A DNA stretch of 43,600 nt. Source: Candidatus Peribacteria bacterium RIFCSPHIGHO2_02_FULL_53_20. Lineage in GTDB: Bacteria; Patescibacteriota; Gracilibacteria; Peribacterales; Peribacteraceae. Below, piece after piece: positions 4,625 to 38,112 of the stretch (its first letter is position 1; each line of letters starts with the position of its first letter). Location: contig MFXW01000005.1 in the NCBI GenBank assembly GCA_001787585.1, positions 1-43,600 on the forward strand, written 5' to 3'. Made by a program: the position numbers and the translations under genes. The notes beneath the pieces were generated by a model that searched no databases, had not been told where the DNA came from, and worked only from the letters and a program-made list of their open reading frames with translations.

Positions 4625-5066
4625 AGAACTCGCGATACAACAGCGGCAAGAGCAGGAAAAATCCATTCTCATCGAGCAACTGAAAAAGACCCCGATTGTG
4701 CAGGTCGCTTGTGAGAAAACCGGAACGGGCAGGACAACCTACTACCGTTGGCGCAAAGAAGATGAGGCGTTCGAGAAAGAAGCTGATACCGCCCTGAAGG
4801 AGGGCAAGTCGCTAGTCAACGATGTCGCGGAGTCACAGCTCCTCGGTGCGATTCGGGAAGGCAATATGACGGCCATCATCTTCTGGCTCAAAAATCATCA
4901 TAACGAGTACGCGAACCGCGTAGAGGTAACGGCGAAGCTTGCCGAACAAGATCCGTTGAACCCCGAACAAGAATCCATTATCCGCGAGGCAATTCGCCTC
5001 GCGGCTTTACCCATTTCCCCCTCTTCCCATGGAGACATCTCCACACTCCCAGAAAGCTCTGATTGA
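4617..5066 (+). CDS. terS: Terminase small-subunit-like HTH protein
   Basis: From ATG 4617: ...ACEKTGTGRTTYYRWRKEDEAFEKEADTAL...GNMTAIIFWLKNHHNEY. This is the HTH plus IIFWLKN pattern typical of phage small terminase (phBC6A51-type HTH) proteins. It overlaps the methylase stop by 8 nt and lies directly upstream of terL. Confidence 0.7.
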   Translation: MSKELAIQQRQEQEKSILIEQLKKTPIVQVACEKTGTGRTTYYRWRKEDEAFEKEADTALKEGKSLVNDVAESQLLGAIREGNMTAIIFWLKNHHNEYANRVEVTAKLAEQDPLNPEQESIIREAIRLAALPISPSSHGDISTLPESSD

Positions 5067-6555: not shown

Positions 6556-6642
6556 GCGGAATTTAGGGGGAGTATCTCCTAGCCTTTCGGGTCGGGTCGC
6601 GGTCTTGTGTGGGGAGAATCTTACTTATTTCTCCCTCTACAA

Positions 6643-8010: not shown

Positions 8011-8093
8011 CATACTTGGAGAGTAATCATCATGAATTCTCATGTAGAATTACCTATGTGGATCCATTACAACCAACAATCGGGGCGCCGCGG

Positions 8094-9352: not shown

Positions 9353-12300
9353 ATGCCTATTATCGACAACAATTCACAGACAATGCACGATGCGCTAATC
9401 AATGCACTCACAAGTGTAGATAGGGTAGATATTGAAGTAGGTTATTTTTATTTCTCAGGCTGGAAACTTCTTGCTGAACAACTCAGGGACAAAAAGATTC
9501 GCCTTCTGGTCGGTAAATATATTGACCCGGAGGCTATACCTGAACTTCTTTCAAAGATGAAACAGGAAGGAACGGATGTTGATCTCGATGCCTTCCAGTC
9601 GAGAAAGCCCATCCTATCTCGTGTGGCAAAGAAGCAAACCTACGTAAAGAGTTTTGTGAAGTTGTCTAATGAGTCTTCTCTGCTTGATGAAAGTGACAAT
9701 CAAGACGCCTATGGAATATTAGAGAGCAAAATCGCAGACGGCTCTCTTGAGATTAAAATCACCGCAAAACAGGAGCATGGAAAGATGTATATCTTGCACA
9801 ATAAGCCAAATTTCAGCCAGAACGGAGATTATCCCGGAACGGTATTTATGGGATCGAGTAATTTTACATTCCAGGGGCTACTCAATCAGGGGGAGTTAAA
9901 TGACCGCTATAGCGATAAGGAAAAATATACGAGTTATGTACAGAAATTTGAGTCCATGTGGTCTAACGCCGAGAATATTGATATCGCCACTTTGGATAAT
10001 AAGGATGAATTGCTCGATCAATTTAAAAAAGAGTTATGGGTTCATGCCTGTCCTACCCCCTATTCGGTGTACGTAAGAGTGCTGCATGAAATTTTTGGAA
10101 AAGAGGTCGATCAGAAAATCAAAACACCTGCGAAGATCACTCATGAAAAGTACGTGGATTTGGAATATCAAATTGATGCCATAAAATCTGTGATGGATAA
10201 GCTCCGGAAGTATGACGGTGTGATCGTGGCGGATGTTGTCGGTCTTGGGAAAAGCATTATTGCTTCTGCTGCCGCACATAACTTGGATTTGAATGCCATC
10301 ATTATCGCTCCTCCTCATTTGCGAGAGCAATGGGATGATTATCAAGCTGATTTTAAATTACCCGGTGCAAGATTCTACAGCTCCGGAGCGATTGCCGATG
10401 TCTATGAGAAGTTCAAAAACAATAATCAACCGCTGCTCATTATTCTTGATGAGGCACATAGATACAGGAACGAAGACACTGACGATTACCGAATGTTGCA
10501 CCACATTTGCAACAGCCACTCTGAAAATAAGGTTATTCTGTTAACGGCTACACCATTTAACAATGATCCAAAAGATGTATTTGCTCTCGTGAAGTTATTC
10601 CAAATACCGGGACAGTCCACCATTCGCTCAGTGGATAATCTCAGTTTACGTTTTAGAGAACTAATCGACAGGTACAAAAAGTTAAATCGTGACAGAAGAA
10701 CCGGAAAGATAGATCAAGCTGGCATTGATAAGGAGGCGGATGAGATATCCCTTGAATTACGTCGTTTAATCGAGAATATCGTCATACGGAGATCTCGTTT
10801 GGATTTGAAAGAGATCACGAGATATAGAGAAGACTTGGAAAGGCAGCACATAGATTTTGCAGATGTAGAAGGACCGGAGCTTCTGCAATATGACCTTGGG
10901 GATCTTTTGGATTTGTATTTGAGTACATTACTCAAAATTACCTCAGAAGATGAAGAAAACAGATTTGTGGGCGCTCGTTATAAGCCAGCCACATACATCA
11001 AAAACAGAGATGAGTTCATCAAATTGTATGGGAAGGATTTGGATGAGAGTGATCTGCAAACCGCTCAGACCAACTTGTCGAAGTTTATGAAGCGGCTTCT
11101 CGTGATGCGCTTTGAAAGCTCAAAGGATGCGTTTCGATCAACTTTGAAAAACATTATCGCTTCTCACCAGCTTATCGAGGACTGGTGGCATAAAGTGAAG
11201 AAGGTTCCGATCATGAAGAAGGGCAAAATACCTGATCCAGAATCAGTTTTGCTTACATCGGATGATAATCTGGACGAGGAAATAAAAGAACAGACGGACG
11301 ATACAGAACTTGAAAATCTAAAAGTCACGAAGGGACTTATCGCAGTTGATCGATCACTTATTGACCCGAAATTTATTGAGGACGTTTCTAATGATAAGAA
11401 GTTGCTCGAGGAAATACATGACAATTGGTTTGGGAAAGAGGCTGAAAAGCACAGGGAATTTGATCCTAAGCTTGATGAAGTGAAAAGTAGAATCGAGGAT
11501 CTTCTAAAAGATAATCCGTTGAGGAAGATCGTAATATTCTCTTCGTATGCCGATACCGTGAATTATTTGTTCAATGAATTGATTAAGCGCGGCATGCAAC
11601 GAGTGATCAAATACACTGCTGCGGATAGCAGTAAGGAGACAAAAAAAATCCTTCGAAAGAATTTTGATGCAGGCATCAAGGAAGAGGAGAAGGCTGATGA
11701 CTATGACGTTTTAATTGCAACAGATGCCCTCAGCGAGGGATACAACCTTCATCGGGCAGGCATCGTCATCAACTATGATATTCCGTACAATCCGACAAGG
11801 GTTATACAAAGAGTCGGTCGCATCAATCGTATTAACAAAAGAGTGTTCGACAAGCTCGGTGTCTATAACTGCTTCCCGACGGAGACAGGTGAATCAGAGA
11901 TTCGGGTGAAGCAGATTTCTACCTTAAAAATGCGTCTGATCAATGCCGTTGTTGGAAGTGATACAAAAACACTGACTGATGATGAAAAACTGCAAAGCTT
12001 CTTCAAGGATGAGTACCAGAAAGCTGAATCGGAAAACGAAATTATTTCATGGGACACGCCCCATAGAGAGGCATATGAGCAAGCGAAGAAAGACAAGCAT
12101 TCATTCGAGGAAGCCTTAGGCATTAAGCCACGCAGCCGTGTCATTCGTACTGGGCAGAAGAAGGAAGCCGTCGTTGCATTCGGCAAGAAAGGCGAACATG
12201 CCGTCTTTGCCCTTAAGGAAGAGTTGGCGCCGGCGATAGTTGCTGCGGAATTGGCATTGAATTATTTTGTTGCCAAAAAGGAAGAGGAGGGAAAGGAAGC

Positions 12301-12661
12301 AGATAAACAGTATGATGCAGTTTTTAAGATCGTACGAGACACGTTATTTGAAAAGCATCCATTGCCTGTTATTCGAGGAAGAAGATCTGATGCACTGAAT
12401 GTCGTAAAATTGATTGAAGAGAAAATGCCGAAAGCCAGAGATTACTGTCGTGATCTGGCTCAGATTATAAAAAAGTATGATGGCATTAGTGACGGTGATC
12501 TGAAATTGATTGCGAAGCTTAAACTGGAAGATGTACCTAGGGCGTATGAGGAACTGAGGATCGCTGTGCCAGAGCACCATATTGCTGCAATCAATGAGCG
12601 TGTTGCCCGCCTAGAAGGCGAATATGAAACAATTGTTCTTAGTGAAGAACTTCGCACATGA
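9353..12661 (+). CDS. PLD-family nuclease domain fused to SNF2/DEAH-type helicase (1102 aa)
   Basis: N-terminal PLD: ...EHGKMYILHNK...VFMGSSNFTFQGL (HxK...GSxN). Helicase motifs ADVVGLGKS (I), ILDEAHRYRN (II), LLTATPFNN (III), ATDALSEGYNLH, YNPTRVIQRVGRINR (VI). Confidence 0.9.
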   Translation: MPIIDNNSQTMHDALINALTSVDRVDIEVGYFYFSGWKLLAEQLRDKKIRLLVGKYIDPEAIPELLSKMKQEGTDVDLDAFQSRKPILSRVAKKQTYVKSFVKLSNESSLLDESDNQDAYGILESKIADGSLEIKITAKQEHGKMYILHNKPNFSQNGDYPGTVFMGSSNFTFQGLLNQGELNDRYSDKEKYTSYVQKFESMWSNAENIDIATLDNKDELLDQFKKELWVHACPTPYSVYVRVLHEIFGKEVDQKIKTPAKITHEKYVDLEYQIDAIKSVMDKLRKYDGVIVADVVGLGKSIIASAAAHNLDLNAIIIAPPHLREQWDDYQADFKLPGARFYSSGAIADVYEKFKNNNQPLLIILDEAHRYRNEDTDDYRMLHHICNSHSENKVILLTATPFNNDPKDVFALVKLFQIPGQSTIRSVDNLSLRFRELIDRYKKLNRDRRTGKIDQAGIDKEADEISLELRRLIENIVIRRSRLDLKEITRYREDLERQHIDFADVEGPELLQYDLGDLLDLYLSTLLKITSEDEENRFVGARYKPATYIKNRDEFIKLYGKDLDESDLQTAQTNLSKFMKRLLVMRFESSKDAFRSTLKNIIASHQLIEDWWHKVKKVPIMKKGKIPDPESVLLTSDDNLDEEIKEQTDDTELENLKVTKGLIAVDRSLIDPKFIEDVSNDKKLLEEIHDNWFGKEAEKHREFDPKLDEVKSRIEDLLKDNPLRKIVIFSSYADTVNYLFNELIKRGMQRVIKYTAADSSKETKKILRKNFDAGIKEEEKADDYDVLIATDALSEGYNLHRAGIVINYDIPYNPTRVIQRVGRINRINKRVFDKLGVYNCFPTETGESEIRVKQISTLKMRLINAVVGSDTKTLTDDEKLQSFFKDEYQKAESENEIISWDTPHREAYEQAKKDKHSFEEALGIKPRSRVIRTGQKKEAVVAFGKKGEHAVFALKEELAPAIVAAELALNYFVAKKEEEGKEADKQYDAVFKIVRDTLFEKHPLPVIRGRRSDALNVVKLIEEKMPKARDYCRDLAQIIKKYDGISDGDLKLIAKLKLEDVPRAYEELRIAVPEHHIAAINERVARLEGEYETIVLSEELRT

Positions 12662-15600
12662 ATCTGCAAACCGCTTATGATCGGGATACATACCTCGAAT
12701 TCCTCCGAACGTTTGTTCCGGGCTTCAAAGAGGACATCCGCAGTGCGGTGGCTGATAAGCTACAAGTGACGTCGAAAGCTTATTTTCTCGGGGAATCGGA
12801 AGACTTAGATTTATCTGTGTTTGAAATTACGCATTCATCGAGCACTGACGCTCGTGTATCGCTTTCAATGGACGGTTTCAAGCTAATGAAAACCAGCGCA
12901 ACATATCGAGCACTGATCGTCTATCGTTCTGAAAATAGCGAAGACTGGCGCTTTTCTCTCATGACAGCAACGCCGGATCTCGATGAGAAGGGAAAGGTGG
13001 TACGCAAACTTTCTAATCCGCGTAGATTCTCGTTTTTCCTAGGACCGAATGCCAAAATCAACACTCCGAAACGATTTTTGATCAAAGAAGGACCGGTAAG
13101 TGACTTTGCAGATTTACAGAATCGGTTCTCGCTGGAGGTGGTCAACAAGGAGTTCTATAAACAAATATCTGAAAAGTTCACACAGTTAGTTGGCGGTACA
13201 TTGGGAACCGGTAAGAAACAGAAAACCTACGAACCACTCATCAAATTACCTTCTCAATCTTCAAAAAGTCAGGAAAATATGGAGTTTGGCGTCCGACTGA
13301 TAGGACGCATTATTTTCTGCTGGTTCCTGCGTGAGAAGAAAAGCAAAAACAATCTTTCGTTGATGCCAGCGGAGTTACTTTCAAGCGGAGCAGTGTCAAA
13401 AAATTCTCATTATTACCATTCGATCCTCGAACCGATATTTTTTGAAGTACTCAATAAAGAACAGCGATCACGCCGGGAGGAATTTTCCGGCGAATCGTAC
13501 TCACTTATTCCGTATCTAAACGGAGGGCTATTCTCGCCACATAAAGATGACTACTACCAACGTCCGAATGGCGAGCAGTCGATTTTCCACAACACGCTTG
13601 TTATCCCTGATGCTTGGCTGAAGGAACTCTTTGAAATTCTGGAGACGTACAACTTCACTATTGACGAAAACACGAGTTTTGACGAAGAACTTTCCATTGA
13701 CCCGGAAATGCTTGGGCGCATCTTTGAAAACCTCCTTGCAGAGATCAATCCGGAAACCGGAGAATCGGCCCGTAAAAGCACAGGAAGCTACTACACGCCG
13801 CGTGTGATTGTTGATTATATGGTAGACGAAAGCCTCCTGCTCTATTTGCAGGAACACACGAAAATCCCCGAAGAAAAACTCCGAGCCGTTGTCAGTTACG
13901 ATTTAAGTGATGATGCGGAGTACAAGCTGACTGAGGAAGAAAAAAAGCTGGTTGTTCAAAGTTTAGGCAAGCTAAAACTACTCGACCCTGCTTGTGGCTC
14001 TGGCGCATTTCCTATCGGCGCACTGCAGAAGATTGTATTCATCCTTCAGCAGGTAGACCCAGATGGTAAGCACTGGTTGCAGAAACAACTGGAGAATGCA
14101 CATCCAGAATTCCGAAGGGATATTGAAAAGAAATTCTCCAATAGGGAACTGGATTTTCTTAGAAAGCTAGGAATTATTCGTGAGTGCATCTTCGGTGTAG
14201 ATATACAACCGATAGCGACTGAGATTGCACGGTTGCGCTGTTTCCTTACGCTTATCGTCGATGAACGCATTGATGATAAGGCAGAGAATCGAGGAATAAA
14301 GCCATTACCAAACCTCGACTTCAAATTTGTAACAGCAAATAGTCTCATTAATCTGCCTAAATTGGAGGAATCAATCCAATCAGCCATGTTTGATGATCAG
14401 CAAGGGATCAGCGATCTGAAAACAATTCGCGATCAATACTTCAATGCGTATGGTTTAGAAAGGGAACAGTTAAAAACTGAATTTATAACGGCACAGAAGC
14501 GGCTTGTAGATAAACTTGTGGAAGAGCATGGATATATGGGTGTTGCAAAGGCAGAATTAACCCAGAAACTCACAAGCTGGGAACCGTTTAGTCATAGTTC
14601 ATCTGGGTGGTTTGATCCTGAATGGATGTTCGGAATAAGTGATGGATTTAATATTGTGATTGCGAATCCTCCGTATGTTGATTCTGAATCCATGGCAAAA
14701 AATTATTCAGAACAACGCGAAAAATATAAAGACATTTTTGAAACTACAAAAGGAAACTGGGACCTATTTGTTCCTTTTATTGAAAGAGGATTCAATCTAA
14801 TAAATAAGGTCGGGTATTTATCGTATATAATCCCCAATAAACTGATTGCGGCAAAATATGCTATTGTCCTTAGAGAGTTCATATCTACAAAGATGGTTAG
14901 TGAAATTAGGGACTATTCAAGGTTACCTGTATTTGTGGAGGCTGATGTCTATCCCGTAACTCTCACAGCTGGGAATTCATCACCAAACAATGATGACAAA
15001 ACAAATTTCGCAACTATGGGGGCATTGGATCGGGTAAAATTTGCCAACACTTGTAATAGCACGCTCTTAAAAGATCATTCATATTGGGACATCTTTTTTT
15101 ATGAAGAAAAGATTTTTAAACTTCTCATAAAGTTACTGAGCCATACCAAATTGAAAAAGAATGGAGTTTCATTACTTGGTGCAGCGACAGTCGATGAAGC
15201 CTACAAAATAAAGAATTTAATTTGTGATTCTGAAGATACTAATCTAGCAATGAAGATGGTTAATACGGGTACTATTGATAAGTATCAATCTTTGTGGGGC
15301 GTTCGAGAAATGCAATACTTAAAGCAGAAATACAAGAACCCCATTGTTAAAAAAGAAGATATTCAGAAACTGAGCTCGACTCGTCTATCTCAGGCTGAAT
15401 CAAGAAAAATAATTATTGCTGGCATGAGCAATAAGATTGAAGCATATTATGACGATGGAGAATATTTAGCTGGTAAGTCTACAAGCATAATATTGGGTGA
15501 GCGAGAAATTTTATTGACACTTATAGGAATTCTGAATTCCAAGCTGGTCGATTTTTTTGTAAATCAATATTTCAAATCACTTAAAATGAGCGGTGGCTAT

Positions 15601-15792
15601 ATCAATATAAATAAAGATGTTCTTGAGAACATTCCAATTGCCACAAGGAAAAACGTTCCACTATTAAATTTAGTCAGCAAAATGAATCAATCACCTGACA
15701 ATAACACTAAACAGAGGATTGATCAGATGGTGTATGAACTTTATAAATTGACCCCAGAAGAGATTGAAATTGTTGAAAGTTCCAGCAAGTAG
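12658..15792 (+). CDS. Eco57I/PglX-like gamma-class N6-adenine DNA methyltransferase with C-terminal target-recognition domain (1044 aa)
   Basis: GSYYTPRVIVDYMV, motif I LLDPACGSGAFPIGA, motif IV VIANPPYV, and a TRD-like LIGILNSKLVDFFV. ATGA overlap with the helicase stop at 12658-12661. No PD-ExK motif seen in the N-terminal 200 aa. Confidence 0.9.
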   Translation: MNLQTAYDRDTYLEFLRTFVPGFKEDIRSAVADKLQVTSKAYFLGESEDLDLSVFEITHSSSTDARVSLSMDGFKLMKTSATYRALIVYRSENSEDWRFSLMTATPDLDEKGKVVRKLSNPRRFSFFLGPNAKINTPKRFLIKEGPVSDFADLQNRFSLEVVNKEFYKQISEKFTQLVGGTLGTGKKQKTYEPLIKLPSQSSKSQENMEFGVRLIGRIIFCWFLREKKSKNNLSLMPAELLSSGAVSKNSHYYHSILEPIFFEVLNKEQRSRREEFSGESYSLIPYLNGGLFSPHKDDYYQRPNGEQSIFHNTLVIPDAWLKELFEILETYNFTIDENTSFDEELSIDPEMLGRIFENLLAEINPETGESARKSTGSYYTPRVIVDYMVDESLLLYLQEHTKIPEEKLRAVVSYDLSDDAEYKLTEEEKKLVVQSLGKLKLLDPACGSGAFPIGALQKIVFILQQVDPDGKHWLQKQLENAHPEFRRDIEKKFSNRELDFLRKLGIIRECIFGVDIQPIATEIARLRCFLTLIVDERIDDKAENRGIKPLPNLDFKFVTANSLINLPKLEESIQSAMFDDQQGISDLKTIRDQYFNAYGLEREQLKTEFITAQKRLVDKLVEEHGYMGVAKAELTQKLTSWEPFSHSSSGWFDPEWMFGISDGFNIVIANPPYVDSESMAKNYSEQREKYKDIFETTKGNWDLFVPFIERGFNLINKVGYLSYIIPNKLIAAKYAIVLREFISTKMVSEIRDYSRLPVFVEADVYPVTLTAGNSSPNNDDKTNFATMGALDRVKFANTCNSTLLKDHSYWDIFFYEEKIFKLLIKLLSHTKLKKNGVSLLGAATVDEAYKIKNLICDSEDTNLAMKMVNTGTIDKYQSLWGVREMQYLKQKYKNPIVKKEDIQKLSSTRLSQAESRKIIIAGMSNKIEAYYDDGEYLAGKSTSIILGEREILLTLIGILNSKLVDFFVNQYFKSLKMSGGYININKDVLENIPIATRKNVPLLNLVSKMNQSPDNNTKQRIDQMVYELYKLTPEEIEIVESSSK

Positions 15793-15793
15793 C

Positions 15794-16717
15794 ATGGCAA
15801 GTCCTAATCCAACAAAACATCAGCACTTTGTGCCTCTCTTTTATCTTAAGAATTTTGCTGACAATGACGGGTATCTTGATGTGCTCAATATCAAAGAAAA
15901 AAGGATGGCAAAACGACGACCATATCAGGGACTGGGTTATGAATATTACTACTACGCAGTCAATACCGGCATGCCCGATGATACGTCGCAACAGGTTGAG
16001 GAATGGTTGAAGCCAACTGAAGATTATCTTGCCAAGCAACTACCGAGAATCATTGATGTAATACTTCAAAATCAGCAGATAGAAGACAATGACCGATATA
16101 TTCTTGCTGTATTAATGAGCATGCTCTGGTTGAGAACCCCGAGTATGAGAAACGATATACAACAAACGGAAGACCAGATGGTCGAGCAGATAAAGAGATT
16201 GCACGGAACAGAATATGCCAATCAATTGAGAAGTACGGACAACATCACGCATCTCAAATTCATGGTCGAAACATTGGGCTTTGGTGGCCCAGGCTTCACA
16301 AATCTCTTTTTCTCCATGAAATGGAAAGCGTACATCGCACGGGGAAAAGAAGTTTTTATTACATCGGACTCACCTGTTGTTGAAAAATTTCCGCCACCAA
16401 CCAGTTTCTGGGGAGCACATTCCTTTTTAGAAAGGAATAAGTATTTTGCTCTTACTCCAGATATTCTTTTTGAGTTAACTGAGCCAGTTGGATCTACCAA
16501 AGTTAGGCGTAAGACTATCTATGAAGAAGACGATGACATTGTCAAAACTCTAAACATGATTCTTATAAGTGGTGCTCAAGATTATGCATATTCAGGAAGT
16601 AGAATATGTCTTGATCAGATTTTGGCTGGCAGAAACAATCCTGGATATCTTGAAAAGAAGTATTTGGAACAGTATGAAAAGCCGTGGGCTGAATATCATG
16701 CAAAAATGAGAACATAA
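15794..16717 (+). CDS. DUF4238-like protein
   Basis: N-terminus MASPNPTKHQHFVPLFYLKNF matches the recalled DUF4238 opening (HyvPqfYLrnF). ATG 15794 lies 1 nt after the methylase stop; the track start at 15764 is TTG. Confidence 0.65.
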   Translation: MASPNPTKHQHFVPLFYLKNFADNDGYLDVLNIKEKRMAKRRPYQGLGYEYYYYAVNTGMPDDTSQQVEEWLKPTEDYLAKQLPRIIDVILQNQQIEDNDRYILAVLMSMLWLRTPSMRNDIQQTEDQMVEQIKRLHGTEYANQLRSTDNITHLKFMVETLGFGGPGFTNLFFSMKWKAYIARGKEVFITSDSPVVEKFPPPTSFWGAHSFLERNKYFALTPDILFELTEPVGSTKVRRKTIYEEDDDIVKTLNMILISGAQDYAYSGSRICLDQILAGRNNPGYLEKKYLEQYEKPWAEYHAKMRT

Positions 16718-16847
16718 TAACCAAAAAAGTGGGACAGAGATGGATTGAAAAAATAGCGAAAAATGGAGCGTTCTTCACTCAAAATAACCATGTCGCGCAC
16801 CCGCAACCTCTTCCCGCCTTCGCCCTGCAGAGCTACGATAATCCTGT

Positions 16848-17588
16848 ATGCGAAAGAAAAATATCTTTAATCCGGCGTCTACAGAGCCATACAAGCTCAG
16901 CCGCTCTCGACTGGACCGGTTTCTTAAGTGTCCCTGCTGCTTCTACATGGATCGCAGACTAGGAGTGGATCAAGTATCGGGTCCGGCATTCACGCTCAAT
17001 AGCGCAACGGATACACTTCTGAAGAAAGAATTTGATGTTTGCAGGGCAAAAGGAATACCACACCCTCTCATGAAGAAACATAAAGTGAATGCCATTCCCT
17101 TCAAGCATCCTGATATCGACATATGGAGGGAAAACTTCAAAGGAGTGCAGCATCTTCATAAACCCACTAATCTGCTCATTACGGGGGCAGTGGATGATGT
17201 ATGGGTGGATCCAAAGGGCAACTTGAGCGTTGTGGACTACAAATCGACCAGCACCACCAAAGAAATAGACCTGAATGACGGAACTCCGTGGAAAGACGGC
17301 TACAAGCGTCAGATGGAGATTTACCAGTGGCTACTGCGTCAAAATGGATTCAAGGTGAATGACATTGGATATTTCGTCTATGTGAATGCCGATACGGATC
17401 AAGATGCATTCGACGGAAAATTAGTCTTCGATGAAGAAATCATTGTGCATAAAGGGGACGACAGCTGGGTAGAGCAGGCCATCATCGACGCTCACAAGTG
17501 TCTACGGAGGAAGAAGATACCGAAGGGTTCGGAGGGTTGTGAGTGGTGCGTGTATCGTGCGGATGCTTCAAAAGTTCTCGGCGCTTGA
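16848..17588 (+). CDS. Cas4/RecB-like PD-(D/E)XK nuclease with flanking Cys cluster
   Basis: GAVDDVWV...VVDYKS...QMEIYQWLL (D...DxK...QxxxY). Cysteines at KCPCCFY (N-terminal) and CLRRK...GCEWC (C-terminal), as in Fe-S Cas4-type nucleases. Confidence 0.75.
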   Translation: MRKKNIFNPASTEPYKLSRSRLDRFLKCPCCFYMDRRLGVDQVSGPAFTLNSATDTLLKKEFDVCRAKGIPHPLMKKHKVNAIPFKHPDIDIWRENFKGVQHLHKPTNLLITGAVDDVWVDPKGNLSVVDYKSTSTTKEIDLNDGTPWKDGYKRQMEIYQWLLRQNGFKVNDIGYFVYVNADTDQDAFDGKLVFDEEIIVHKGDDSWVEQAIIDAHKCLRRKKIPKGSEGCEWCVYRADASKVLGA

Positions 17589-17745: not shown

Positions 17746-17820
17746 GCCTCCGTAGTTCAACGGAAAGAATGCCCTGGTTCTAACTGGGAGATGTGGGTTC
17801 GATTCCTGCCGGGGGCACCA
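17746..17820 (+). tRNA. tRNA-Arg(UCU): tRNA-Arg, anticodon UCU, genomically encoded CCA
   Basis: Hand-folded cloverleaf. Acceptor GCCTCCG/CGGGGGC (one G.U), D-loop with GG, anticodon loop GTTCTAA, T-arm GTGGG-TTCGATT-CCTGC, then A-CCA. One U.U mismatch in the anticodon stem lowers confidence in the isotype. Confidence 0.72.
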
Positions 17821-17917: not shown

Positions 17918-18679
17918 ATGACAACATCAGATTCCACAGCACTGGAGAAAATGGAACGACTTCAAACCATTTTATCTAGTGAAAAGAAAGAAAAAGAAAA
18001 GTTTGGAGAAGCACAAAATCTGTATGCTGAGCTTGAAGATTTGATAATTGAAATTGATCCTATAACTCCATACAAAGTTGAATTTATTCGAGGAAGTCCG
18101 ATTCTGTGCAAGACAGACATTTATGCTGGTTATTTCACAGGCATGCTGGATTACAGAGGAAAAGGAGAAATGCAACTAAGGAAAGTAATTGCAAAGCTCA
18201 AGAACAGGGAGTCTTCTTTAGAAAAGAAGACACCAGCCCAGCACTCACCAATGGAAATGGTGATAAGAATTATGAAAAATTTTCGCGCATGTTGTCAATT
18301 TTCTAAGCACCCTACTTCTGAAAAAGAGGTGCAGGATATTTTGTGGATAATGCTTAGAGGTGCTTTCAGCTTAATCAGAGAAGAAACACTTCCAAAGTTT
18401 GCGGCCAAAAGTTATATACCAGACTTTGCAATCCCAGAAGTCAGGGCTTTAGTAGAAGTAAAATTTATTGGAGAAAAGACCCAACCAAAACATATCCAAG
18501 AAGAGATACTTGCTGATATTCAGCCATACCTTAAAAATACTGGGGACTATGAATCCGTGATCGTATTTATTTATGATCATGCGAATAAGATAAAGGATGA
18601 ATCAAAATTTGTATCTGATTTGGAGGCTGTGGAAGGTATTCACTGCGTAATTATCATGCACAGCATAGCATCAACATAA
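17918..18679 (+). CDS. Hypothetical protein with C-terminal PD-(D/E)XK-like nuclease motif
   Basis: EKEVQDILWIML...SYIPDFAIPEVRALVEVKFIG fits E...PD...(E)xK. N-terminal half is coiled-coil-like/unknown. Motif-level call only. Confidence 0.5.
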   Translation: MTTSDSTALEKMERLQTILSSEKKEKEKFGEAQNLYAELEDLIIEIDPITPYKVEFIRGSPILCKTDIYAGYFTGMLDYRGKGEMQLRKVIAKLKNRESSLEKKTPAQHSPMEMVIRIMKNFRACCQFSKHPTSEKEVQDILWIMLRGAFSLIREETLPKFAAKSYIPDFAIPEVRALVEVKFIGEKTQPKHIQEEILADIQPYLKNTGDYESVIVFIYDHANKIKDESKFVSDLEAVEGIHCVIIMHSIAST

Positions 18680-18765
18680 AAAAGAAGTGATTTAATCATT
18701 TCCTGATAAGCTCCCATAGGGCGCACCAATCTTTATAATCGGATAGTCTATACTACTTTTAAAAT

Positions 18766-20115
18766 ATGACAGCCTTCCTAACACCACGACTCGAACAAGC
18801 AATGGAACTCGCAATACGGGTCCATGGACCTATGAAGCGGAAGGGTGATGATCAGCCTTATCTAGTCCATCCAATGAGCGTTTTGGCCTTGCTTGTCCAA
18901 TGGGGTTCAGATGAGGACACCTGCATCGCAGGGCTCCTCCATGATGTGATCGAGGATGCCGAAGATGATTCCAAGCGAGCGAAATACCGGAAAGAGATCG
19001 AAGAGAAATTCGGCAGGGAGGTACTGGAAATCGTGGAGGGCGTGACCGAGCAGGATAAATCATTGCCGTGGAAGGAGCGGAAAATGCTCTATTTGAAGCA
19101 TCTGAAAGAAGCATCCGAAGCATCACTGCTCGTGAGCTGCGCGGATCGGACACATAACATGTCGTCCCTGGTCGAGAGCTACAGGAATGAAGGGGAAGAA
19201 GTGTGGAAGCGATTCAATGCCGGAAAGGAGCAGCAAATTTGGTTTGTCAGGAGTGTCTTTGAGATCCTTCATAAGCGACTTGGGTCGCCCTACACAGAGG
19301 ATCTGGAGCAAACAATGATGAAGCTGGAGAATGTTTCTGCGGAGTCGTCTGTCGCGGTTGGAGATGATGCTCAACAAAAATTGGTGAAGTTCACCGCTAA
19401 AGAATTTCTGAAGATTGCGGAGATTGCTAAGTCGTTCGTTGAGAAGGGAACAGCCGACAATCCTCCCAAGTTCGTCATTATGACGGGTGGCCCCGGTGCA
19501 GGGAAATCAACGATACGCAAGCGGGACTACAGTCAGGGGTATGTGCATTTTGATCCCGGCGACATCTTTGCAGAGATGAGAAAAATTAAGGACGAAAGCA
19601 ATGTGAAATTTAACGCCTCTATTTCGTTTACCTGCGAATTACTTTTGAGACAAGCGATAGAGGAAAGGAAGAACATCGTCACGGAGGTCATCGGAGATAC
19701 GTACGAACCCCTCAAGTCTATTATGGATAAAATGCTTGAGATTGGTTATACGATTGATGTCCGGGCCGTTACAGCCGATGTTGCAGAATCATATCAACGG
19801 CATCTCAAGGCAGTAAAAGAAGATCCTGGCTATCTTTCAGCAGCCTTAACACAAGGCACCACTCTATCTACTTTTTCACATGTTCTCGAAATAGAAGTTA
19901 CGGGTAAAAAGGATAGAACCTTTCAAAAAACAACACCGGAGAAATATCTTGAATCCTACAATACAGCCGTAGAAGCTGCTCGCGGGAAAATCAGAACTGG
20001 TAAAGACGATCTGGAGAAGCAAAAAACTTGTCCTCATGACTTTGATAGTCTAATCGGAGATCTACTCCATGGCCCGTGTGTTTGTAGCGATTGCGGAAAG
20101 GCAATTGCCAACTGA
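18766..20115 (+). CDS. Fusion: SpoT/Mesh1-type HD (small-alarmone-hydrolase-like) domain + zeta-toxin/AAA_33-like P-loop kinase + C-terminal Zn ribbon
   Basis: HD domain: YLVHPMSVLALL...IAGLLHDVIEDAEDD...VSCADRTHNM. P-loop: FVIMTGGPGAGKSTIRKRDY... with a kinase-like core. C-terminus CPHDFDSLIGDLLHGPCVCSDCG. Confidence 0.8.
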   Translation: MTAFLTPRLEQAMELAIRVHGPMKRKGDDQPYLVHPMSVLALLVQWGSDEDTCIAGLLHDVIEDAEDDSKRAKYRKEIEEKFGREVLEIVEGVTEQDKSLPWKERKMLYLKHLKEASEASLLVSCADRTHNMSSLVESYRNEGEEVWKRFNAGKEQQIWFVRSVFEILHKRLGSPYTEDLEQTMMKLENVSAESSVAVGDDAQQKLVKFTAKEFLKIAEIAKSFVEKGTADNPPKFVIMTGGPGAGKSTIRKRDYSQGYVHFDPGDIFAEMRKIKDESNVKFNASISFTCELLLRQAIEERKNIVTEVIGDTYEPLKSIMDKMLEIGYTIDVRAVTADVAESYQRHLKAVKEDPGYLSAALTQGTTLSTFSHVLEIEVTGKKDRTFQKTTPEKYLESYNTAVEAARGKIRTGKDDLEKQKTCPHDFDSLIGDLLHGPCVCSDCGKAIAN

Positions 20116-20212
20116 CGATACGGATGATCTTTCTGGCTACCTTACTTTCAAGAACAACGCGCGTAAAAACCTTTGAAGTCAGCCAAGGAAACATCGTCTG
20201 CCGAAAGGGATC

Positions 20213-20842
20213 TTATTTCGTTACCAGATGTTCTGCTACAAATTTGGCATACCAAGAGAATACTGGTTGCAGCAACGGAAGCAATTTTACAGCTATAAAG
20301 AGAAGTGCCAAAAGAGCACAAAGGGAAGCAAAACGCCGAAAAGCCTCTTTGCTTACTTTCATAAAGAACAAATTGATACGCGTGGGCGGAGCGGCAATTT
20401 CCTCATACCATTTTCTTGTATCGCCCCAAAGCAAGATCAAGAACCATTTACAGATAAAGTATGTCATCCAATTGCGGAGGTAGACGTGGATGTCGCGCCT
20501 TGCCCGGACCATGCTATCGGATCGGCGAACGAGGCCATAGTCTTCAAGTATCAGATCAATATTTTTCCTTGGGAATGTCCTTTCATGAATAGTGCCTGCA
20601 AAGCCAATTGGTGATGCAAATTCGTAGGCTCTATCAGATGAATCAAGTGGCTTCGATGACAGCCATATCTGAATGTATCTATCAGCCAGCCACATTTTCC
20701 AGCCAGTCCCTCGTGCTGGTCTGTTATTCCGTAGCAATACCCATACATGAAACGGGGCAATAAAAAGAACAAACACGGCTACGATCGCAATCCATGCAAG
20801 ATTGTCCAGAGCGATGCGAAATAAATAGGCAATGAGTTCCAT
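20213..20842 (-). CDS. Multi-pass membrane protein (2-3 predicted TM helices), unknown family
   Basis: From ATG 20842: MELIAYLFRIALDNLAWIAIVAVFVLFIAPFHVWVLL..., WMTYFICKWFLILLWG, FASLCALLALLFIAVKLLPLL. Starts 24 nt after the DUF4062 gene stop on the same strand. The track start at 20860 is TTG. Confidence 0.6.
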   Translation of the reverse strand: MELIAYLFRIALDNLAWIAIVAVFVLFIAPFHVWVLLRNNRPARGTGWKMWLADRYIQIWLSSKPLDSSDRAYEFASPIGFAGTIHERTFPRKNIDLILEDYGLVRRSDSMVRARRDIHVYLRNWMTYFICKWFLILLWGDTRKWYEEIAAPPTRINLFFMKVSKEAFRRFASLCALLALLFIAVKLLPLLQPVFSWYAKFVAEHLVTK

Positions 20843-20866
20843 GTAATGAGAATTATACAAGATTGG

Positions 20867-22009
20867 TTATACAACATCTTTATTAACCTGACGCCTTAGC
20901 ATTGCCAATACCCTCTGTATTTCACTGCTAGGGTTATCGAAATCAGCGTAATCAATGTGTCGAGGCTGATCAAAAGCAACGACCATATCACTGCCGCCCA
21001 TGTTCATTGGATATGATTGCTTTTTTTCAGAGCTCCTGCCCATGCGCTTATAACCGATACCTGCAAGTGCCACTGCATAGTAGAAGTCATGATATTTTCT
21101 GTGAGGATCACGTTGCTTATAGAATTCCGCCGCGAAACTGAATACAGATAGCAGAGTTTTCTCTATCATTTGTTCATCGATCTCGAAGGCACTCTGAATA
21201 TTTAGAGGGTTTTTGTTTTGCTCAACGACATTCGTTATCACTTGAAGTACACCTTTTTCACTAACAATCAGCGTGATGAAATTTCCAGATCGATGATCGT
21301 TACGTTGGTACACAATGATATGACCGTTCTCAAAAGAAACCTCTGTACTTCTATCGTACGGAAAAAGTTTAATGCGGCGATTGTGCACCAGATCAATCAA
21401 CGAGTCCTTGAAGTCACTATCTTCCATAGTGACCGGATCAATTACCTCGTTATCCCGTACTGGGGCGATGACAACGTTTAGTCTGGTTTCATCGCTTCGT
21501 TGCCGAAACTCCTGTACTGCAGCCTGTATTTTGCTCGTATTAGTTGTGGGAATACTCATGACTTTAAGGCTCTGGGAAAGGGAATCCACTATAACACTGC
21601 GAAGTTCTTCCTTACTGGAAAATGTTTTTCGAAACTTTCCTTCTACGTAACTGCTGACGTTCTTTGCCAATGATGCAGCAGGTTCGTCACGCTCTGTTCC
21701 TTCTAGGAATGCAAAAACGGGTATTTTTCTCCTACGTGCTTCCTCATACTCTTCTTCAATAACCAGCTTCCCCGATGGGGTTACTGATCCTCCTGATGAT
21801 CCCAAAATAAGAATGAAGGCATCCGAAGATGCTACCGCATCCAAACAGGTATTTCTCGGTGATGCATCAAGCGCGGGGAAATCTTCATTAACAAGAATGG
21901 GGTCGCCACCAGCTTCTTCCACGGCAGTCCTAGCAATCTCTCGGTAAATCTGAAAATTATTCAGCACAGAGCTGATGAAAACCCGTGGCTTCTGGTGTCC
22001 ATCAACCAT
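20867..22009 (-). CDS. DUF4062 (TIR/NDT-like fold) N-terminal domain protein with ~250-aa unknown C-terminal region
   Basis: From ATG 22009: MVDGHQKPRVFISSVLNNFQIYREIARTAVEEAGGDPILVNEDFPALDASPRNTCLDAVASSDAFILILGSSGG...EEEYEEARRRKIPVFAFL matches the recalled DUF4062 consensus (vFiSS...R...mE.f.a....cl..i..cD.fi.i.g..YG...E...A...gkP.l.Fl). The track start at 22075 is TTG. Confidence 0.75.
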   Translation of the reverse strand: MVDGHQKPRVFISSVLNNFQIYREIARTAVEEAGGDPILVNEDFPALDASPRNTCLDAVASSDAFILILGSSGGSVTPSGKLVIEEEYEEARRRKIPVFAFLEGTERDEPAASLAKNVSSYVEGKFRKTFSSKEELRSVIVDSLSQSLKVMSIPTTNTSKIQAAVQEFRQRSDETRLNVVIAPVRDNEVIDPVTMEDSDFKDSLIDLVHNRRIKLFPYDRSTEVSFENGHIIVYQRNDHRSGNFITLIVSEKGVLQVITNVVEQNKNPLNIQSAFEIDEQMIEKTLLSVFSFAAEFYKQRDPHRKYHDFYYAVALAGIGYKRMGRSSEKKQSYPMNMGGSDMVVAFDQPRHIDYADFDNPSSEIQRVLAMLRRQVNKDVV

Positions 22010-22148
22010 GGAATTGAATGTTGGGACTGCCACATTTATGGCAGCGAACACGCTGAGGCTGTTGACCCCTTGCAACGATCACATGGGTGGGTTCAACATC
22101 TGCCTCATACTCATGTCCGCAATCCTGGCATTGATATATCTTTCTCAT
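22002..22148 (-). CDS. Small Zn-ribbon protein (48 aa, FmdB-like CxxC...CxxC); not in the ORF track
   Basis: Hand translation: MRKIYQCQDCGHEYEADVEPTHVIVARGQQPQRVRCHKCGSPNIQFHG*. Its stop (22004-22002) overlaps the ATG (22009-22007) of the DUF4062 gene within ATGGTTGA. Confidence 0.55.
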   Translation of the reverse strand: MRKIYQCQDCGHEYEADVEPTHVIVARGQQPQRVRCHKCGSPNIQFHG

Positions 22149-22178
22149 CGCAGAAACGGAAAAATGTAGTGAATGCCT

Positions 22179-22208
22179 AATATAGGGTAATTAGCACTCG
22201 TTGGTCAA
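22179..22208 (-). promoter_or_regulatory. Candidate promoter for the Zn-ribbon/DUF4062/TM operon (TTGACC-18 nt-TATATT on the minus strand)
   Basis: Plus-strand ggtcaa at 22203-22208 and aatata at 22179-22184. The -35 sits in the loop of a 6-bp inverted repeat GCACTC...GAGTGC (22194-22214). Confidence 0.3.
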
Positions 22209-22319
22209 GAGTGCCATCTTCTATAATCGATGTGTTGTGTTCCATAAAAACCAATCGGGTCGCACCACACCGGTGCAACTGATGGTCAAGATTGCGGGTC
22301 GCTTAAGACGCGCAAGTAG

Positions 22320-22396
22320 TGGTGGAGCTGAAGGGAGTCGAACCCTTGACCCCCTGCTTGCAAAGCAGGTGCTCTGACCAACTGAGCTACAGCCCC
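22320..22396 (-). tRNA. tRNA-Ala(UGC): tRNA-Ala, anticodon UGC, encoded CCA
   Basis: Reverse complement GGGGCTGTAGCTCAGTTGGTCAGAGCACCTGCTTTGCAAGCAGGGGGTCAAGGGTTCGACTCCCTTCAGCTCCACCA. Clean cloverleaf, G3.U70 Ala identity pair, anticodon loop TTTGCAA. Confidence 0.95.
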
Positions 22397-22438
22397 ACGA
22401 AAGAAATTCTACAAGTGATCTGCTTCCTGCTACAAGCA

Positions 22439-23599
22439 TCACGTAACAACTTCCTCCAGCCTCCCCTCTCCCACCGCAGCTTTAATCTCCATCCCGATCC
22501 TCTCTCCTACACTCATAGCTTCGCCGTAGAGATACCGCGTATAGGGAGTGGCAAACGTCCCAGGAGAACCCGGAATCCGAAACGATACATCAAAGATCAC
22601 GATATCCTCCTTTCCATCTTCCGTAACAACGGCTCCCTGCAGCGCAAACGGCCCGATGATGCCTTTGCCTGTGGGATCGAATTTCTTCGGAAGTTTTTTG
22701 CACTGAGCGACAAATTTTTCGCCGAGCTCGAACGCTTTTTCGAGAAGGGATTCTTTCACCGTGACCGCGATGTGCCCGGTCTCCACCATCTTCACGGAGG
22801 TGAATTGCTTCGCCCAAATCTGATCTTCGGCAGTCATCCGGAGAAATCCGTCGAGATTGGTCTGCCGGCGGGTATCTGTCCCGAGCAATTCCAGTTCCCC
22901 AGTGAGCGGCGAATAGAAGAAGTTGAAATTCACAGGAGCGCCGACGACAAATTCCTCGATCGTCGCATCGTCCATGGCATCAGAAGAGATCATTCCGGAA
23001 GCGATGTGGGCAGAGACGCGCTCGTCAAAATCCGTTGCGGTAGCCATGAAAAACCCGCGCTCGTAACGGCGCTGTGCCTCGCGCGCCTTCACAATCACCA
23101 TCCGACCGAGATCGATATCCTTTGCGCCCTTATATAGTTTGGGAGTGCGTATGCCGGCATCCCGCAAAAGATGATACTGATTGTACGGCTGATCGCGTTC
23201 CTCGAGCATCATCAGATGCCGCGAACCGAAGATCGGAACCCTAAACTCCTCTTCCACTTTCTTGTAGTCCGGGAAATACACCCAGAAGTACCTATTATGA
23301 ACAAAAATTGTGTTCATCTTTTGGAGCTTCTCTTGAATCTTTTGCTGCAATACATCTTCGAATTTATCCACAACGATCGTGTCATCGATGCAACCTGTTT
23401 GCGCCCTTGCGCCCTTGCGCCCTTTCTTCACCTGAAAATACTTCTCATACGTCTTCTCCCTCCCCTTCCGTGCTATGCACACCGTCCCAAATCCATATTT
23501 CTTCGCTCCGTGGGCGACATCGAGCGCGCTGTGACCGCCGAGCACACCGACCGTCAGGTGTTTTTGATCGTAGCCTGCAAGGAGAGAGGATATGTCCAT
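22439..23599 (-). CDS. PurP-like ATP-grasp protein (divergent paralogue of FAICAR synthetase)
   Basis: VGVLGGHSALDVAHGAKKYGF..., FFYSPLTGELELLGTDTRRQTNLDG, IIGPFALQ..., SVGERIGMEIK parallel the PurP pattern of the neighbouring gene. ATG at 23599; the track start at 23635 is GTG. Confidence 0.8.
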   Translation of the reverse strand: MDISSLLAGYDQKHLTVGVLGGHSALDVAHGAKKYGFGTVCIARKGREKTYEKYFQVKKGRKGARAQTGCIDDTIVVDKFEDVLQQKIQEKLQKMNTIFVHNRYFWVYFPDYKKVEEEFRVPIFGSRHLMMLEERDQPYNQYHLLRDAGIRTPKLYKGAKDIDLGRMVIVKAREAQRRYERGFFMATATDFDERVSAHIASGMISSDAMDDATIEEFVVGAPVNFNFFYSPLTGELELLGTDTRRQTNLDGFLRMTAEDQIWAKQFTSVKMVETGHIAVTVKESLLEKAFELGEKFVAQCKKLPKKFDPTGKGIIGPFALQGAVVTEDGKEDIVIFDVSFRIPGSPGTFATPYTRYLYGEAMSVGERIGMEIKAAVGEGRLEEVVT

Positions 23600-23618
23600 G
23601 ATTTTTAGTGTAACTCTT

Positions 23619-24671
23619 TTACCCCAATACCTCACGTAATCTCCCCTGCTTAATCGCCGTTTTAATATCGCGAGCGATGCGCCGACCTGTACTCATAGGC
23701 TCTTTATACCGAAGCGCCGTATACGGTGATCCTTCCACGAAGGGATTGGTGCCAGCAACGATCCTTGCGCTGATTTCAAAGACGAAGATCTCGAGTTTCC
23801 GCGTGACGATGCACTCAAGACAGAACGGGCCGAAGAGACCTTTTCCCCCGCACATCTTCTTGCTTGTTTTCACCACTCTATCCCCCATTGCGAAGAATTC
23901 CGGAAGCATCGACTCGCGGATGACGACCGGGATATTACCGACAATCGTGTAGCTTGTGTAAATATTGGCCGAGAGCTGATCTTCCGCCCGGATACGACCG
24001 ATACTGTCGGCATTGGATTCATAACGCTTGTCGAAACTCATGATCTCCAATTCTTGCGTGAGTGGTGAGAAGAAGTAATGCGCGTAAATCGGCACGCCGA
24101 CGATGTACTCCTGGAGCGCGAAATCATTCTGCTCGGGATACTTGCGGTTCTTCACTTCGTAAAACTGCTCCGCACTTTTGGCGATGAAGTACCCGAATCC
24201 CCCACCCGCTCCGTGGAATTTCACAATCACGGGCTTCTTGATCTCCTCGGGAGTCGCAAAGACCCTAGGCATTTTGATATCAGCCGCCTCGAGCCATTGT
24301 CGCTCCATCGTGCGGTTGCTCTCCCACTCGAGAATCTCCTTCGTGCCGAAGTACATCGCTTTCATCGCTTTCACACGATCATGACCCATGTACGCAATGA
24401 AGGAACCATGCGGAATGATGATCGCATTACGTTTGACGAGTTCCTTCTCCACCTTCTCCCATTCGGACCAGTCATCCACATAGAGGATTTCATCAGCGAC
24501 TCCGTAACTCTTATATGCCCTCTCTGCTCCTTTCTTGCAGACGACAACATTACGCATACCCTCTTGCCGCGCTCCATGCAGAATCTGCAGCGCGGAGTGA
24601 CTGCCCATCGTGGCAATGACGTAGTCACTGGGATTTTTTGAAGCCGGTAGGGATGCTTTCTTCGAAACCAT
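23619..24671 (-). CDS. purP: Archaeal-type 5-formaminoimidazole-4-carboxamide ribonucleotide (FAICAR) synthetase PurP
   Basis: IATMGSHSALQILHGAR, IIPHGSFIAY, FDKRYESNADS, VGNIPVVIRESMLPEFFAMGDRVV, GPFCLE, STGRRIARDIK closely track my recollection of Methanocaldococcus PurP (MJ0136). Confidence 0.88.
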   Translation of the reverse strand: MVSKKASLPASKNPSDYVIATMGSHSALQILHGARQEGMRNVVVCKKGAERAYKSYGVADEILYVDDWSEWEKVEKELVKRNAIIIPHGSFIAYMGHDRVKAMKAMYFGTKEILEWESNRTMERQWLEAADIKMPRVFATPEEIKKPVIVKFHGAGGGFGYFIAKSAEQFYEVKNRKYPEQNDFALQEYIVGVPIYAHYFFSPLTQELEIMSFDKRYESNADSIGRIRAEDQLSANIYTSYTIVGNIPVVIRESMLPEFFAMGDRVVKTSKKMCGGKGLFGPFCLECIVTRKLEIFVFEISARIVAGTNPFVEGSPYTALRYKEPMSTGRRIARDIKTAIKQGRLREVLG

Positions 24672-38080: not shown

Positions 38081-38112
38081 GAACCATCCCATCCCTTTAC
38101 TCTCCCTCGGCA

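Follow-up and report, generated by a model that had tools for sequence, protein, structure and literature searches.

A conserved 48-residue zinc-ribbon gene linked to a putative DUF4062 NADase gene in a probable bacterial defence island

We analysed a stretch of 43,600 nucleotides (nt) from contig MFXW01000005.1 (hereafter the window; coordinates given without a locus name are in its numbering), and in it a pair of adjoining genes that encode a 48-amino-acid (aa) zinc-ribbon protein and a 380-aa protein with an N-terminal DUF4062 domain and a C-terminal auxiliary (AUX) domain. All genes of the unit lie on the minus strand. Its upstream boundary is a tRNA-Ala(TGC) gene (22396..22320, minus strand; ARAGORN and Rfam), followed by a hairpin and a T5 run (22287..22244, minus strand) that look like the tRNA's own intrinsic terminator. 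Next comes a sigma-70-type promoter, TTGACC-18-TATATT (22208..22179, minus strand), which agrees with the consensus at 10 of 12 positions and is assigned to the zinc-ribbon/DUF4062 transcript; an inverted repeat, GCACTC-N9-GAGTGC (22214..22194, minus strand), surrounds its −35 hexamer. The zinc-ribbon gene (22148..22002, minus strand) encodes two CxxC pairs, C7/C10 and C36/C39, and ends with a TGA (22004..22002) that lies just beyond the ATG (22009..22007) of the DUF4062-AUX gene (22009..20867, minus strand; Pfam PF13271), so that the two genes share 8 nt within ATGGTTGA. The 380-aa protein divides into a TIR-like DUF4062 domain (residues 1–147; 22009..21569, minus strand), a putative NAD+ glycohydrolase (NADase) effector, and the AUX domain (residues 148–380 plus the stop codon; 21568..20867, minus strand), a putative trigger sensor or regulator. 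The TAA of the DUF4062 gene is separated by 24 nt from the ATG at 20842 of a gene for a 209-aa membrane protein (20842..20213, minus strand), a co-directional neighbour that we do not count as a member of the conserved unit. An earlier sequence-only reading of this DNA had described the minus-strand 48-aa open reading frame (ORF) with its two CxxC pairs, the overlap of its TGA with the DUF4062 start, a protein of two to three transmembrane segments 24 nt beyond the DUF4062 gene, and the promoter with its inverted repeat downstream of tRNA-Ala, and each of these features was found again at the same place.

We compared this arrangement with its closest relatives, the loci L075 and L072, whose DUF4062 proteins are 87% and 78% identical to the 380-aa protein, respectively. 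Both keep the whole layout: the tRNA 3′ end, directly after which the homologous intergenic region likewise begins, the hairpin, the −35 hexamer, the inverted repeat, the −10 hexamer, the 48-aa ORF, and the 8-nt ATGGCTAA overlap. The zinc-ribbon protein of the window reads MRKIYQCQDCGHEYEADVEPTHVIVARGQQPQRVRCHKCGSPNIQFHG. Among the close loci, substitutions at codon positions 1/2/3 of the small-ORF frame numbered 6/5/18, 5/5/15, and 1/2/12, and the ratio of synonymous to nonsynonymous codon changes was 13:9, 12:9, and 12:3 in this frame; both alternative frames gave about 3:20. The third-position substitutions and the synonymous excess indicate that the zinc-ribbon frame is under selection, and not the long TTG- or GTG-initiated DUF4062 frame; the TTG-initiated frame, against which the sequence-only reading had set the small ORF, is by its codon-position pattern not the selected one. 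By itself, a 48-aa ORF is no more than chance would give (6 kb contain 62 ORFs of 30 aa or longer), and promoter-like matches are not enriched (3 found vs. 4.5 expected). The small ORF and the promoter are lifted above chance because they are conserved, and both promoter hexamers are invariant across the three close loci (the window, L072, and L075; 78–87% protein identity).

Among GTDB species genomes, 70 related loci were found, spread over many bacterial phyla; 67 of them include upstream sequence. A homologous ORF of 47–56 aa with the same four cysteines, whose end falls −24 to +7 nt from the DUF4062 match, was present in 18 of the 67 and mostly overlapped the DUF4062 start; the conservation of frame and overlap, which the sequence-only reading had proposed to check, was thereby borne out. 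Junctions in the zinc-ribbon-bearing loci were an 8-nt overlap (9), a 4-nt overlap (6), a 1-nt overlap (2), or a gap of 2–22 nt (7). The distant loci in which the DUF4062 frame is stopped one to three codons before its ATG include L002, L008, L040, and L053, and a long N-terminal extension of DUF4062 is therefore impossible there. A profile search recovered 43 members of the zinc-ribbon family (E = 3e-20 to 2e-7), the next match being at E = 0.04. Five members were examined on their contigs, and each immediately precedes a DUF4062 gene; three of these DUF4062 genes are intact, one is disrupted by an insertion sequence (IS), and one is degraded. Pairwise identities among zinc-ribbon proteins correlate with those among their DUF4062 partners (Mantel r = 0.59, p = 4e-4), and in the DUF4062 tree all loci with a zinc ribbon fall within a single major clade, where the gene is patchily missing. 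No fusion of the zinc ribbon to the enzyme was found among the longest AUX-containing proteins. On this comparative evidence, we take the small ORF to be a real, conserved gene that is predicted to be translationally coupled to the DUF4062 gene. The zinc-ribbon partner is a clade-specific accessory layer outside the core mechanism.

In public annotation, the 48-aa ORF is left out on the window's own contigs, and some models start the DUF4062 gene at a GTG inside that ORF, which gives a protein of 394 aa (22148..22002 of the window, minus strand; L073 2862–3008; the cluster of P0001). The 394-aa starts and the dropped small ORF are a systematic annotation artefact of the family.

The best Pfam match of the zinc-ribbon protein is Zn_ribbon_8 (FmdB, PF09723; E = 3.6e-6), at 27.3 bits and below the gathering score of 34.4; this profile matches 7 of 19 aligned family members at E ≤ 0.01, and HypA matches 11 of 19. 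A weak sub-threshold match to Ogr_Delta is also given, and the family profile returned only generic zinc-ribbon matches from PDB and Pfam, all of those in Pfam below gathering scores. The family consensus is MKxxxxVCxxCGHE…YxxEEA…PPRCxKCGSxNV. Like FmdB-type Zn_ribbon_8 proteins, the zinc-ribbon protein is small and has two CxxC knuckles; unlike them, it has a family-specific spacer and flanks and stays below the gathering threshold, and FmdB itself has no established mechanism. The PADLOC 2023 models gave no match for the DUF4062 protein or the membrane protein, and only chance-level Cas12f zinc-finger matches for the zinc ribbon.

Decaying pairs were seen at L077 3164–5426, L084 2660–3017, L056 4001–4495, and L063 3998–5035, with the zinc-ribbon ORF intact in each. 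The modes of decay among the pairs comprise a split by a DDE transposase, frameshifted fragments, truncation beside an IS630-like transposase, and run-in to a RelE/HigB-like module. L063 had been a candidate for a zinc ribbon with a different C-terminus and was rejected, the gene being degraded and run into the RelE/HigB-like toxin-antitoxin module.

The promoter was assigned on the understanding that the host is a bacterium. Two PurP genes in the window had prompted the thought of an archaeal host in which TATATT would be a TATA box; this is ruled out by trigger factor (296 bits vs. a cut-off of 180) and RelA/SpoT, both encoded in the window. The host is therefore bacterial and the sigma-70 reading of the promoter stands. 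An Rfam scan of 19900–22600 returned the tRNA only.

DUF4062 has recently been linked to defence by two groups. Osinski et al. (bioRxiv 10.64898/2026.05.01.722283) described it as a TIR-like NADase in Swarozyc (PDB 10wc, 11cq, 11cv), whose representative KpSwz is autoinhibited without a partner and has an AUX with a helix-turn-helix (HTH)/winged-helix core that binds the phage portal; the portal activates the enzyme via AUX, NAD+ is depleted, and infection is aborted. Ibarra-Chavez et al. (bioRxiv 10.64898/2026.06.25.731849) described Evangelion (Eva01–Eva04), a single-gene DUF4062+AUX defence family, with a tree of ~6,000 proteins. Eva01, plasmid-borne in Staphylococcus, requires F11, E87, the core, and AUX, the last being short and removed by the L177* truncation, and it lowers NAD+, which is a measure of depletion and not of direct enzyme activity (bioRxiv 10.64898/2026.06.25.731849). 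The DUF4062 TIR-like NADase also occurs in the eukaryotic vault protein TEP1 (2026 work). A zinc-ribbon partner is mentioned in neither preprint, and "zinc" and "ribbon" are absent from the Evangelion main text. The suggestion of the sequence-only reading that the system may be undescribed therefore holds for the zinc-ribbon partner and falls for DUF4062 NADase defence as such, which these 2026 reports describe.

The N-terminal domain of the 380-aa protein matches PF13271 over the full profile (E = 2e-16; 60.4 bits vs. a gathering score of 24.7; residues 9–91, profile positions 1–82 of 82), and Pfam returned DUF4062 only, with no TIR match in this protein. A profile of 44 full-length homologues matches the KpSwz DUF4062 domain (PDB 10wc; E = 3e-13), and does so over residues 5–149 only. 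In this alignment the catalytic E97 of KpSwz (chain position 82) falls on E85 of an E85-E86-E87 run, and the catalytic glutamate here would be one of these three. All 44 homologues have E86 and E87, conservation of E85 and F11 is at least 90%, and F11 and E87-Y88 correspond to Eva01 F11 and E87 (the "E-Y" region). Most of the homologues begin within ~10 residues of a conserved PRVF motif, with few, nonconserved N-terminal extensions. An AlphaFold2 (AF2) model of the 380-aa protein reached a predicted local distance difference test score (pLDDT) of 85 and a predicted template-modelling score (pTM) of 0.83. Foldseek aligned the modelled N-terminal domain with the SARM1 TIR (template-modelling score, TM, 0.70; root-mean-square deviation 4.0), AbTir (TM 0.66), and DNPH1 (TM 0.69), and TIR-STING and SPARTA TIR-APAZ were among the top matches. 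The model thus gives the N-terminal domain a TIR-like fold. By its Pfam score above threshold, its catalytic motif, and its predicted fold, the locus is assigned to the DUF4062 superfamily. The 380-aa protein is plausibly a conflict-system enzyme, and by homology to its characterised relatives it would have NADase activity and an anti-phage function.

The AUX domain was searched with phmmer against 1.84 billion cluster representatives and matched 243 clusters (defined at 50% identity) at E ≤ 1e-3, nearly all of them proteins of ~365–410 aa with AUX at ~150–380. An AUX-only AF2 model (pLDDT 87.5) is a mixed α/β sandwich of a duplicated β-α-β4-α type. Its fold matches in the PDB are weak (TM ≤ 0.34) and include AdoMetDC, the spermine synthase N-terminal domain, RnlA NRD, and TBP; among viral structures nothing convincing was found (TM ≤ 0.40). 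AUX accordingly has no confident fold family. One protein, P0274 (L090 2501–3739), carries a canonical TIR_2 domain (E = 4e-34) fused before the same AUX, with no zinc-ribbon ORF upstream of its gene. This swap supports the view that the N-terminal domain is an exchangeable NADase head and AUX a regulatory or sensor body.

Like Swarozyc, the protein combines a homologous DUF4062 domain with a C-terminal auxiliary domain, has an acidic residue at the position of E97, and, judging by its neighbours, lies in a defence island, and NAD+ hydrolysis and abortive infection would be expected here too. Unlike Swarozyc, it has an AUX of ~230 aa that is modelled as α/β and weakly TBP/AdoMetDC-like instead of HTH/winged-helix, and its match to KpSwz ends at residue 149. 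Swarozyc consists of one gene; in this lineage the enzyme gene is accompanied by a dedicated gene for a zinc-ribbon partner. Judged from these alignments and models, the locus is not Swarozyc sensu stricto, its AUX being apparently nonhomologous. With Evangelion it shares the DUF4062 core with a diversified AUX, the equivalents of F11 and E87-Y88, and the association with mobile elements or islands; it differs from Eva01 in its 233-aa AUX, which is short in Eva01, and in having two genes instead of one. Swarozyc and Evangelion are defined as single genes; this locus has two, and the rest of its protein family are mostly single genes. The TIR-like head and the logic of a sensor joined to an NADase head recall TIR-STING, SPARTA TIR-APAZ, and Thoeris-type TIR effectors, from which the locus differs in having a 48-aa zinc ribbon in place of a STING, APAZ/Argonaute, or ThsA-like partner. 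What is new here is the AUX fold and the dedicated zinc-ribbon microprotein; the DUF4062 lineage, the enzyme class, and the defence role were already known.

We hypothesize, with slightly better than even confidence, that the locus is a two-gene unit comprising an autoinhibited NADase with AUX as its trigger sensor and the zinc-ribbon protein as a regulatory subunit. One promoter would drive the zinc-ribbon gene and, via the 8-nt overlap, the translationally coupled 380-aa gene. The 380-aa protein would be an autoinhibited NAD+ glycohydrolase, given its homology to Swarozyc and Evangelion; AUX would recognise a phage-derived trigger, and the enzyme, once activated, would use up NAD+ and thereby abort the infection. 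The zinc-ribbon protein would be produced at a constant ratio to the enzyme, would bind it as a regulatory subunit, and might serve either as an antitoxin-like brake until infection or as a co-sensor that helps in trigger recognition. Because the DUF4062 domain is itself the effector in characterised relatives, acting by NAD+ depletion, a separate membrane effector would be unneeded. More tentatively, the zinc ribbon may be an obligate regulatory subunit, a guard- or antitoxin-like switch on the TIR-like head or AUX that keeps the NADase off; the phage would then remove, titrate, or modify it, or the zinc ribbon would bind the trigger. We consider this obligate form possible and short of probable.

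Several points weigh against the two-gene hypothesis. Eva02, one of the tested DUF4062 lineages, gave no protection (bioRxiv 10.64898/2026.06.25.731849), and the Swarozyc and Evangelion references are both unreviewed preprints. About three-quarters of the family loci have no zinc-ribbon gene, which is therefore not essential to the core mechanism and could have a minor role. The fold matches of AUX are weak, and its sensor role is an analogy. The placement of the locus in a defence island was judged qualitatively from the neighbouring genes. The membrane gene runs in the same direction as the pair, and the 24 nt between them contain no terminator-like site; its co-expression or a local functional link with the pair is possible.

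Of the alternatives, a toxin-antitoxin (addiction) module survives best, with a modest chance of being right. In it, a labile zinc-ribbon antitoxin would counter a constitutively active NADase, and the pair would mainly stabilise the island instead of sensing phage. NAD+-degrading toxins with cognate antitoxins are known, RES-Xre and MbcT-MbcA among them, and as in these type II modules a small upstream gene here overlaps a larger gene for a potentially lethal NAD+-consuming enzyme. A small first gene with a 4- or 8-nt overlap is the classic type II layout, and overlaps of 1, 4, or 8 nt occur in 17 loci; the two genes are exclusively linked and co-vary, their surroundings look like mobile elements or islands, and L076 has toxin-antitoxin genes close to the pair. 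However, the locus has no sequence or fold relation to RES-Xre or MbcT-MbcA, and the partner is dispensable in most of the family, whose members without it are presumably not self-toxic. KpSwz, moreover, is autoinhibited without any partner, and the large, conserved, sensor-like AUX of ~230 aa argues for a regulated sensor.

We think it unlikely that the zinc-ribbon protein is instead a transcriptional autoregulator, comparable to small zinc-finger regulators of the Ogr/Delta or FmdB type, that binds the inverted repeat around the −35 hexamer and not the enzyme. The repeat encloses the −35 hexamer, its arms are invariant in the window, L072, and L075, the loop between them varies, and it may function as an operator; the sub-threshold Zn_ribbon_8/FmdB and Ogr_Delta matches of the protein would fit such a role. 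Against it, no equivalent repeat was found upstream of the zinc-ribbon genes in 16 distant loci, so that the operator candidate is specific to the window's clade. The protein is close to neutral in charge, no DNA-binding motif can be recognised in it, its zinc-ribbon matches all lie below gathering scores, and co-variation with the enzyme is not expected of a purely DNA-binding regulator.

A housekeeping or other nonimmune role for DUF4062, such as nucleoside or nucleotide salvage in the manner of NDT or DNPH1 with the zinc ribbon as a structural cofactor, is improbable. The NDT-like DNPH1 matches the modelled fold as well as TIR does (TM 0.69), the family is spread over many phyla, and Eva02 shows no defence. 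A patchy distribution, variable flanking genes, and IS-disrupted or degraded copies speak against a housekeeping function, as do neighbouring restriction-modification, transposase, and toxin-antitoxin genes, the fusion of the same AUX to a canonical TIR, and the fact that the closest characterised homologues are immune NADases.

Highly doubtful is a three-gene system, proposed by the sequence-only reading, in which the zinc ribbon senses, the DUF4062 protein makes a signal, and abortive infection is brought about by the membrane protein. All three genes lie on one strand, with the 8-nt overlap between the first two and a 24-nt gap free of terminator-like sites before the third, and by hydropathy the third protein has two to three transmembrane segments, two strong (~13–37 and ~170–195) and one weak (~124–140). 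However, tblastn with the membrane protein over the 70 DUF4062 loci found no homologue, and a hydropathy filter applied to the downstream ORFs of related loci found no conserved membrane gene, the downstream genes being heterogeneous. The closest relatives keep the tRNA, promoter, zinc-ribbon gene, and DUF4062 gene and differ in what follows, a sulfotransferase-like gene in the 87% relative L075 and a convergent P-type ATPase gene in the 78% relative L072. The membrane protein has only nine homologues, the best (83% identical) in Candidatus Peribacteraceae. Three contexts were seen: one in which the membrane gene comes first, followed by genes for a serine recombinase and then a type ISP methyltransferase (L071 5001–7000), one with AIPR and proteins of 237 and 176 aa before the membrane protein, and one with a type IIG methyltransferase and proteins of 230 and 185 aa before it. 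The membrane homologues thus also occur in cassettes with AIPR or a type IIG methyltransferase, which is compatible with an effector role, but no DUF4062 gene adjoins them in any of the three contexts, and the window lacks the 230-aa and 185-aa partners. By these comparisons the membrane gene falls outside the conserved unit, and the functional unit would consist of two genes; the membrane gene is better described as an independently mobile defence-island gene that may be co-transcribed with the pair here. Of the earlier proposal, the parts that stand are the small zinc-ribbon gene joined to the DUF4062 gene and, plausibly, a DUF4062 conflict-system enzyme in a probable defence island; the part that fails is the membership of the membrane protein, whose family is not syntenic with the other two.

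That the small ORF is untranslated, with DUF4062 starting further upstream, either from TTG 22075 or from the GTG of the 394-aa models, is scarcely credible: the DUF4062 frame is open for 23–28 codons upstream in the three close loci and public 394-aa models exist, but that frame shows about 3:20 synonymous to nonsynonymous changes vs. 12–13:3–9 in the zinc-ribbon frame, distant loci close it just before the ATG and retain the zinc-ribbon ORF with its four cysteines, and the rare extensions beyond the PRVF start shared by most of the 44 homologues are not conserved.

The DUF4062 systems described so far are all single genes, and this locus adds a linked microprotein partner. The 243 AUX clusters make up a sizeable lineage, with a subclade in which the 48-aa partner is strictly linked, co-varies with the enzyme, and is often missed by gene callers. 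If the zinc-ribbon partner regulates the enzyme, it would give DUF4062 immunity a second layer of control and would be another microprotein deciding when a lethal NADase fires. Should the obligate-subunit form be true, the pair would be the first two-component DUF4062 system, with an unannotated microprotein as its control element and a new TBP/AdoMetDC-like AUX sensor fold also able to drive a canonical TIR. The TIR_2-AUX fusion is a natural domain swap that bears on the activation of TIR-type heads by sensor domains. Because annotation pipelines mis-start the DUF4062 gene and drop the small ORF, the zinc-ribbon partner would escape defence-finder models that are based on single genes.

The 24-nt gap before the membrane gene contains a perfect TATAAT preceded by TG (20857–20852, minus strand), 9 nt before the membrane ATG and with no recognisable −35 hexamer; it might provide a weak promoter of its own or a near-leaderless transcript for this gene. 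Elsewhere, members of the membrane-protein family come last in a recurring cassette (L085 955–4657 and L088 1–4651), after proteins of ~230–237 and ~176–185 aa. The first two cassette proteins are 57% and 31% identical between L088 and L085, and the cassettes lie near serine recombinases and follow either a type IIG methyltransferase or an abortive-infection gene of the AIPR type. This cassette may be a separate, undescribed conflict module.

Within the clade that lacks the zinc ribbon (L038, L041, L028, L029; ~4001–5190 plus flanks), the DUF4062-AUX gene lies between a gene for a ~1,235-aa protein and one for a DPPY DNA methyltransferase, or else is followed, with a 12-nt overlap, by a gene for a 616-aa protein whose N-terminus is AlbA_2-like by eye. 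Downstream in L024 lies a further DUF4062-like protein, of 617 aa. These contexts look like multi-gene arrangements that differ from the zinc-ribbon pair.

By its neighbours, the locus lies in a probable defence island. On the plus strand, a phage or mobile-element stretch (2502–9299) includes a ParB-methyltransferase fusion, a terminase large subunit, and a large serine recombinase (within 2502–8010), and also an uncharacterised 453-aa protein; the recombinase shares 53% identity with its counterpart after the membrane homologue in the Peribacteraceae contig L071. It is followed by an HKD/PLD+Snf2 helicase (PADLOC "C3a139 HKD+Snf2", DrmD-like) with an overlapping type IIG-like Eco57I/MmeI methyltransferase (9353–15792, plus strand), and, after the methyltransferase, by DUF4238 and a Cas4-like PD-(D/E)XK nuclease (within 9353–17588, plus strand), so that 9353–17588 is a candidate multi-gene defence cassette. 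A tRNA-Arg gene (17746–17820) marks its end. Two further genes occupy 17918–20115 (plus strand), between two convergent tRNAs: one encodes a 253-aa protein with a DpnII/MboI-type restriction endonuclease (REase) domain (PADLOC Aga_Helical-REase, E = 4e-30), the other a 449-aa fusion of HD_4 and a Zeta-toxin kinase with a cysteine-rich C-terminus (…KTCPHDFDS…HGPCVCSDCGK…). The REase-like and HD_4-Zeta proteins look like stand-alone conflict genes. Elsewhere, related DUF4062 loci adjoin MmeI, HsdM, an REase_MTES_1575 helicase, Fic, DUF499, and transposases.

On the other side of the tRNA-Ala gene, two tandem PurP-type genes (DUF1246/DUF1297, FAICAR synthetase) lie at 22439–24671 (minus strand), on the same contig as the genes for trigger factor and RelA/SpoT (38032–39387, plus strand, and 40358–42325, minus strand). 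Two genes near the locus have their closest homologues in Candidatus Peribacteraceae, which hints at a CPR-like host. PurP is typical of archaea, and trigger factor and RelA/SpoT are bacterial markers; the combination suggests a bacterium that has taken up purine biosynthesis genes of the archaeal type.

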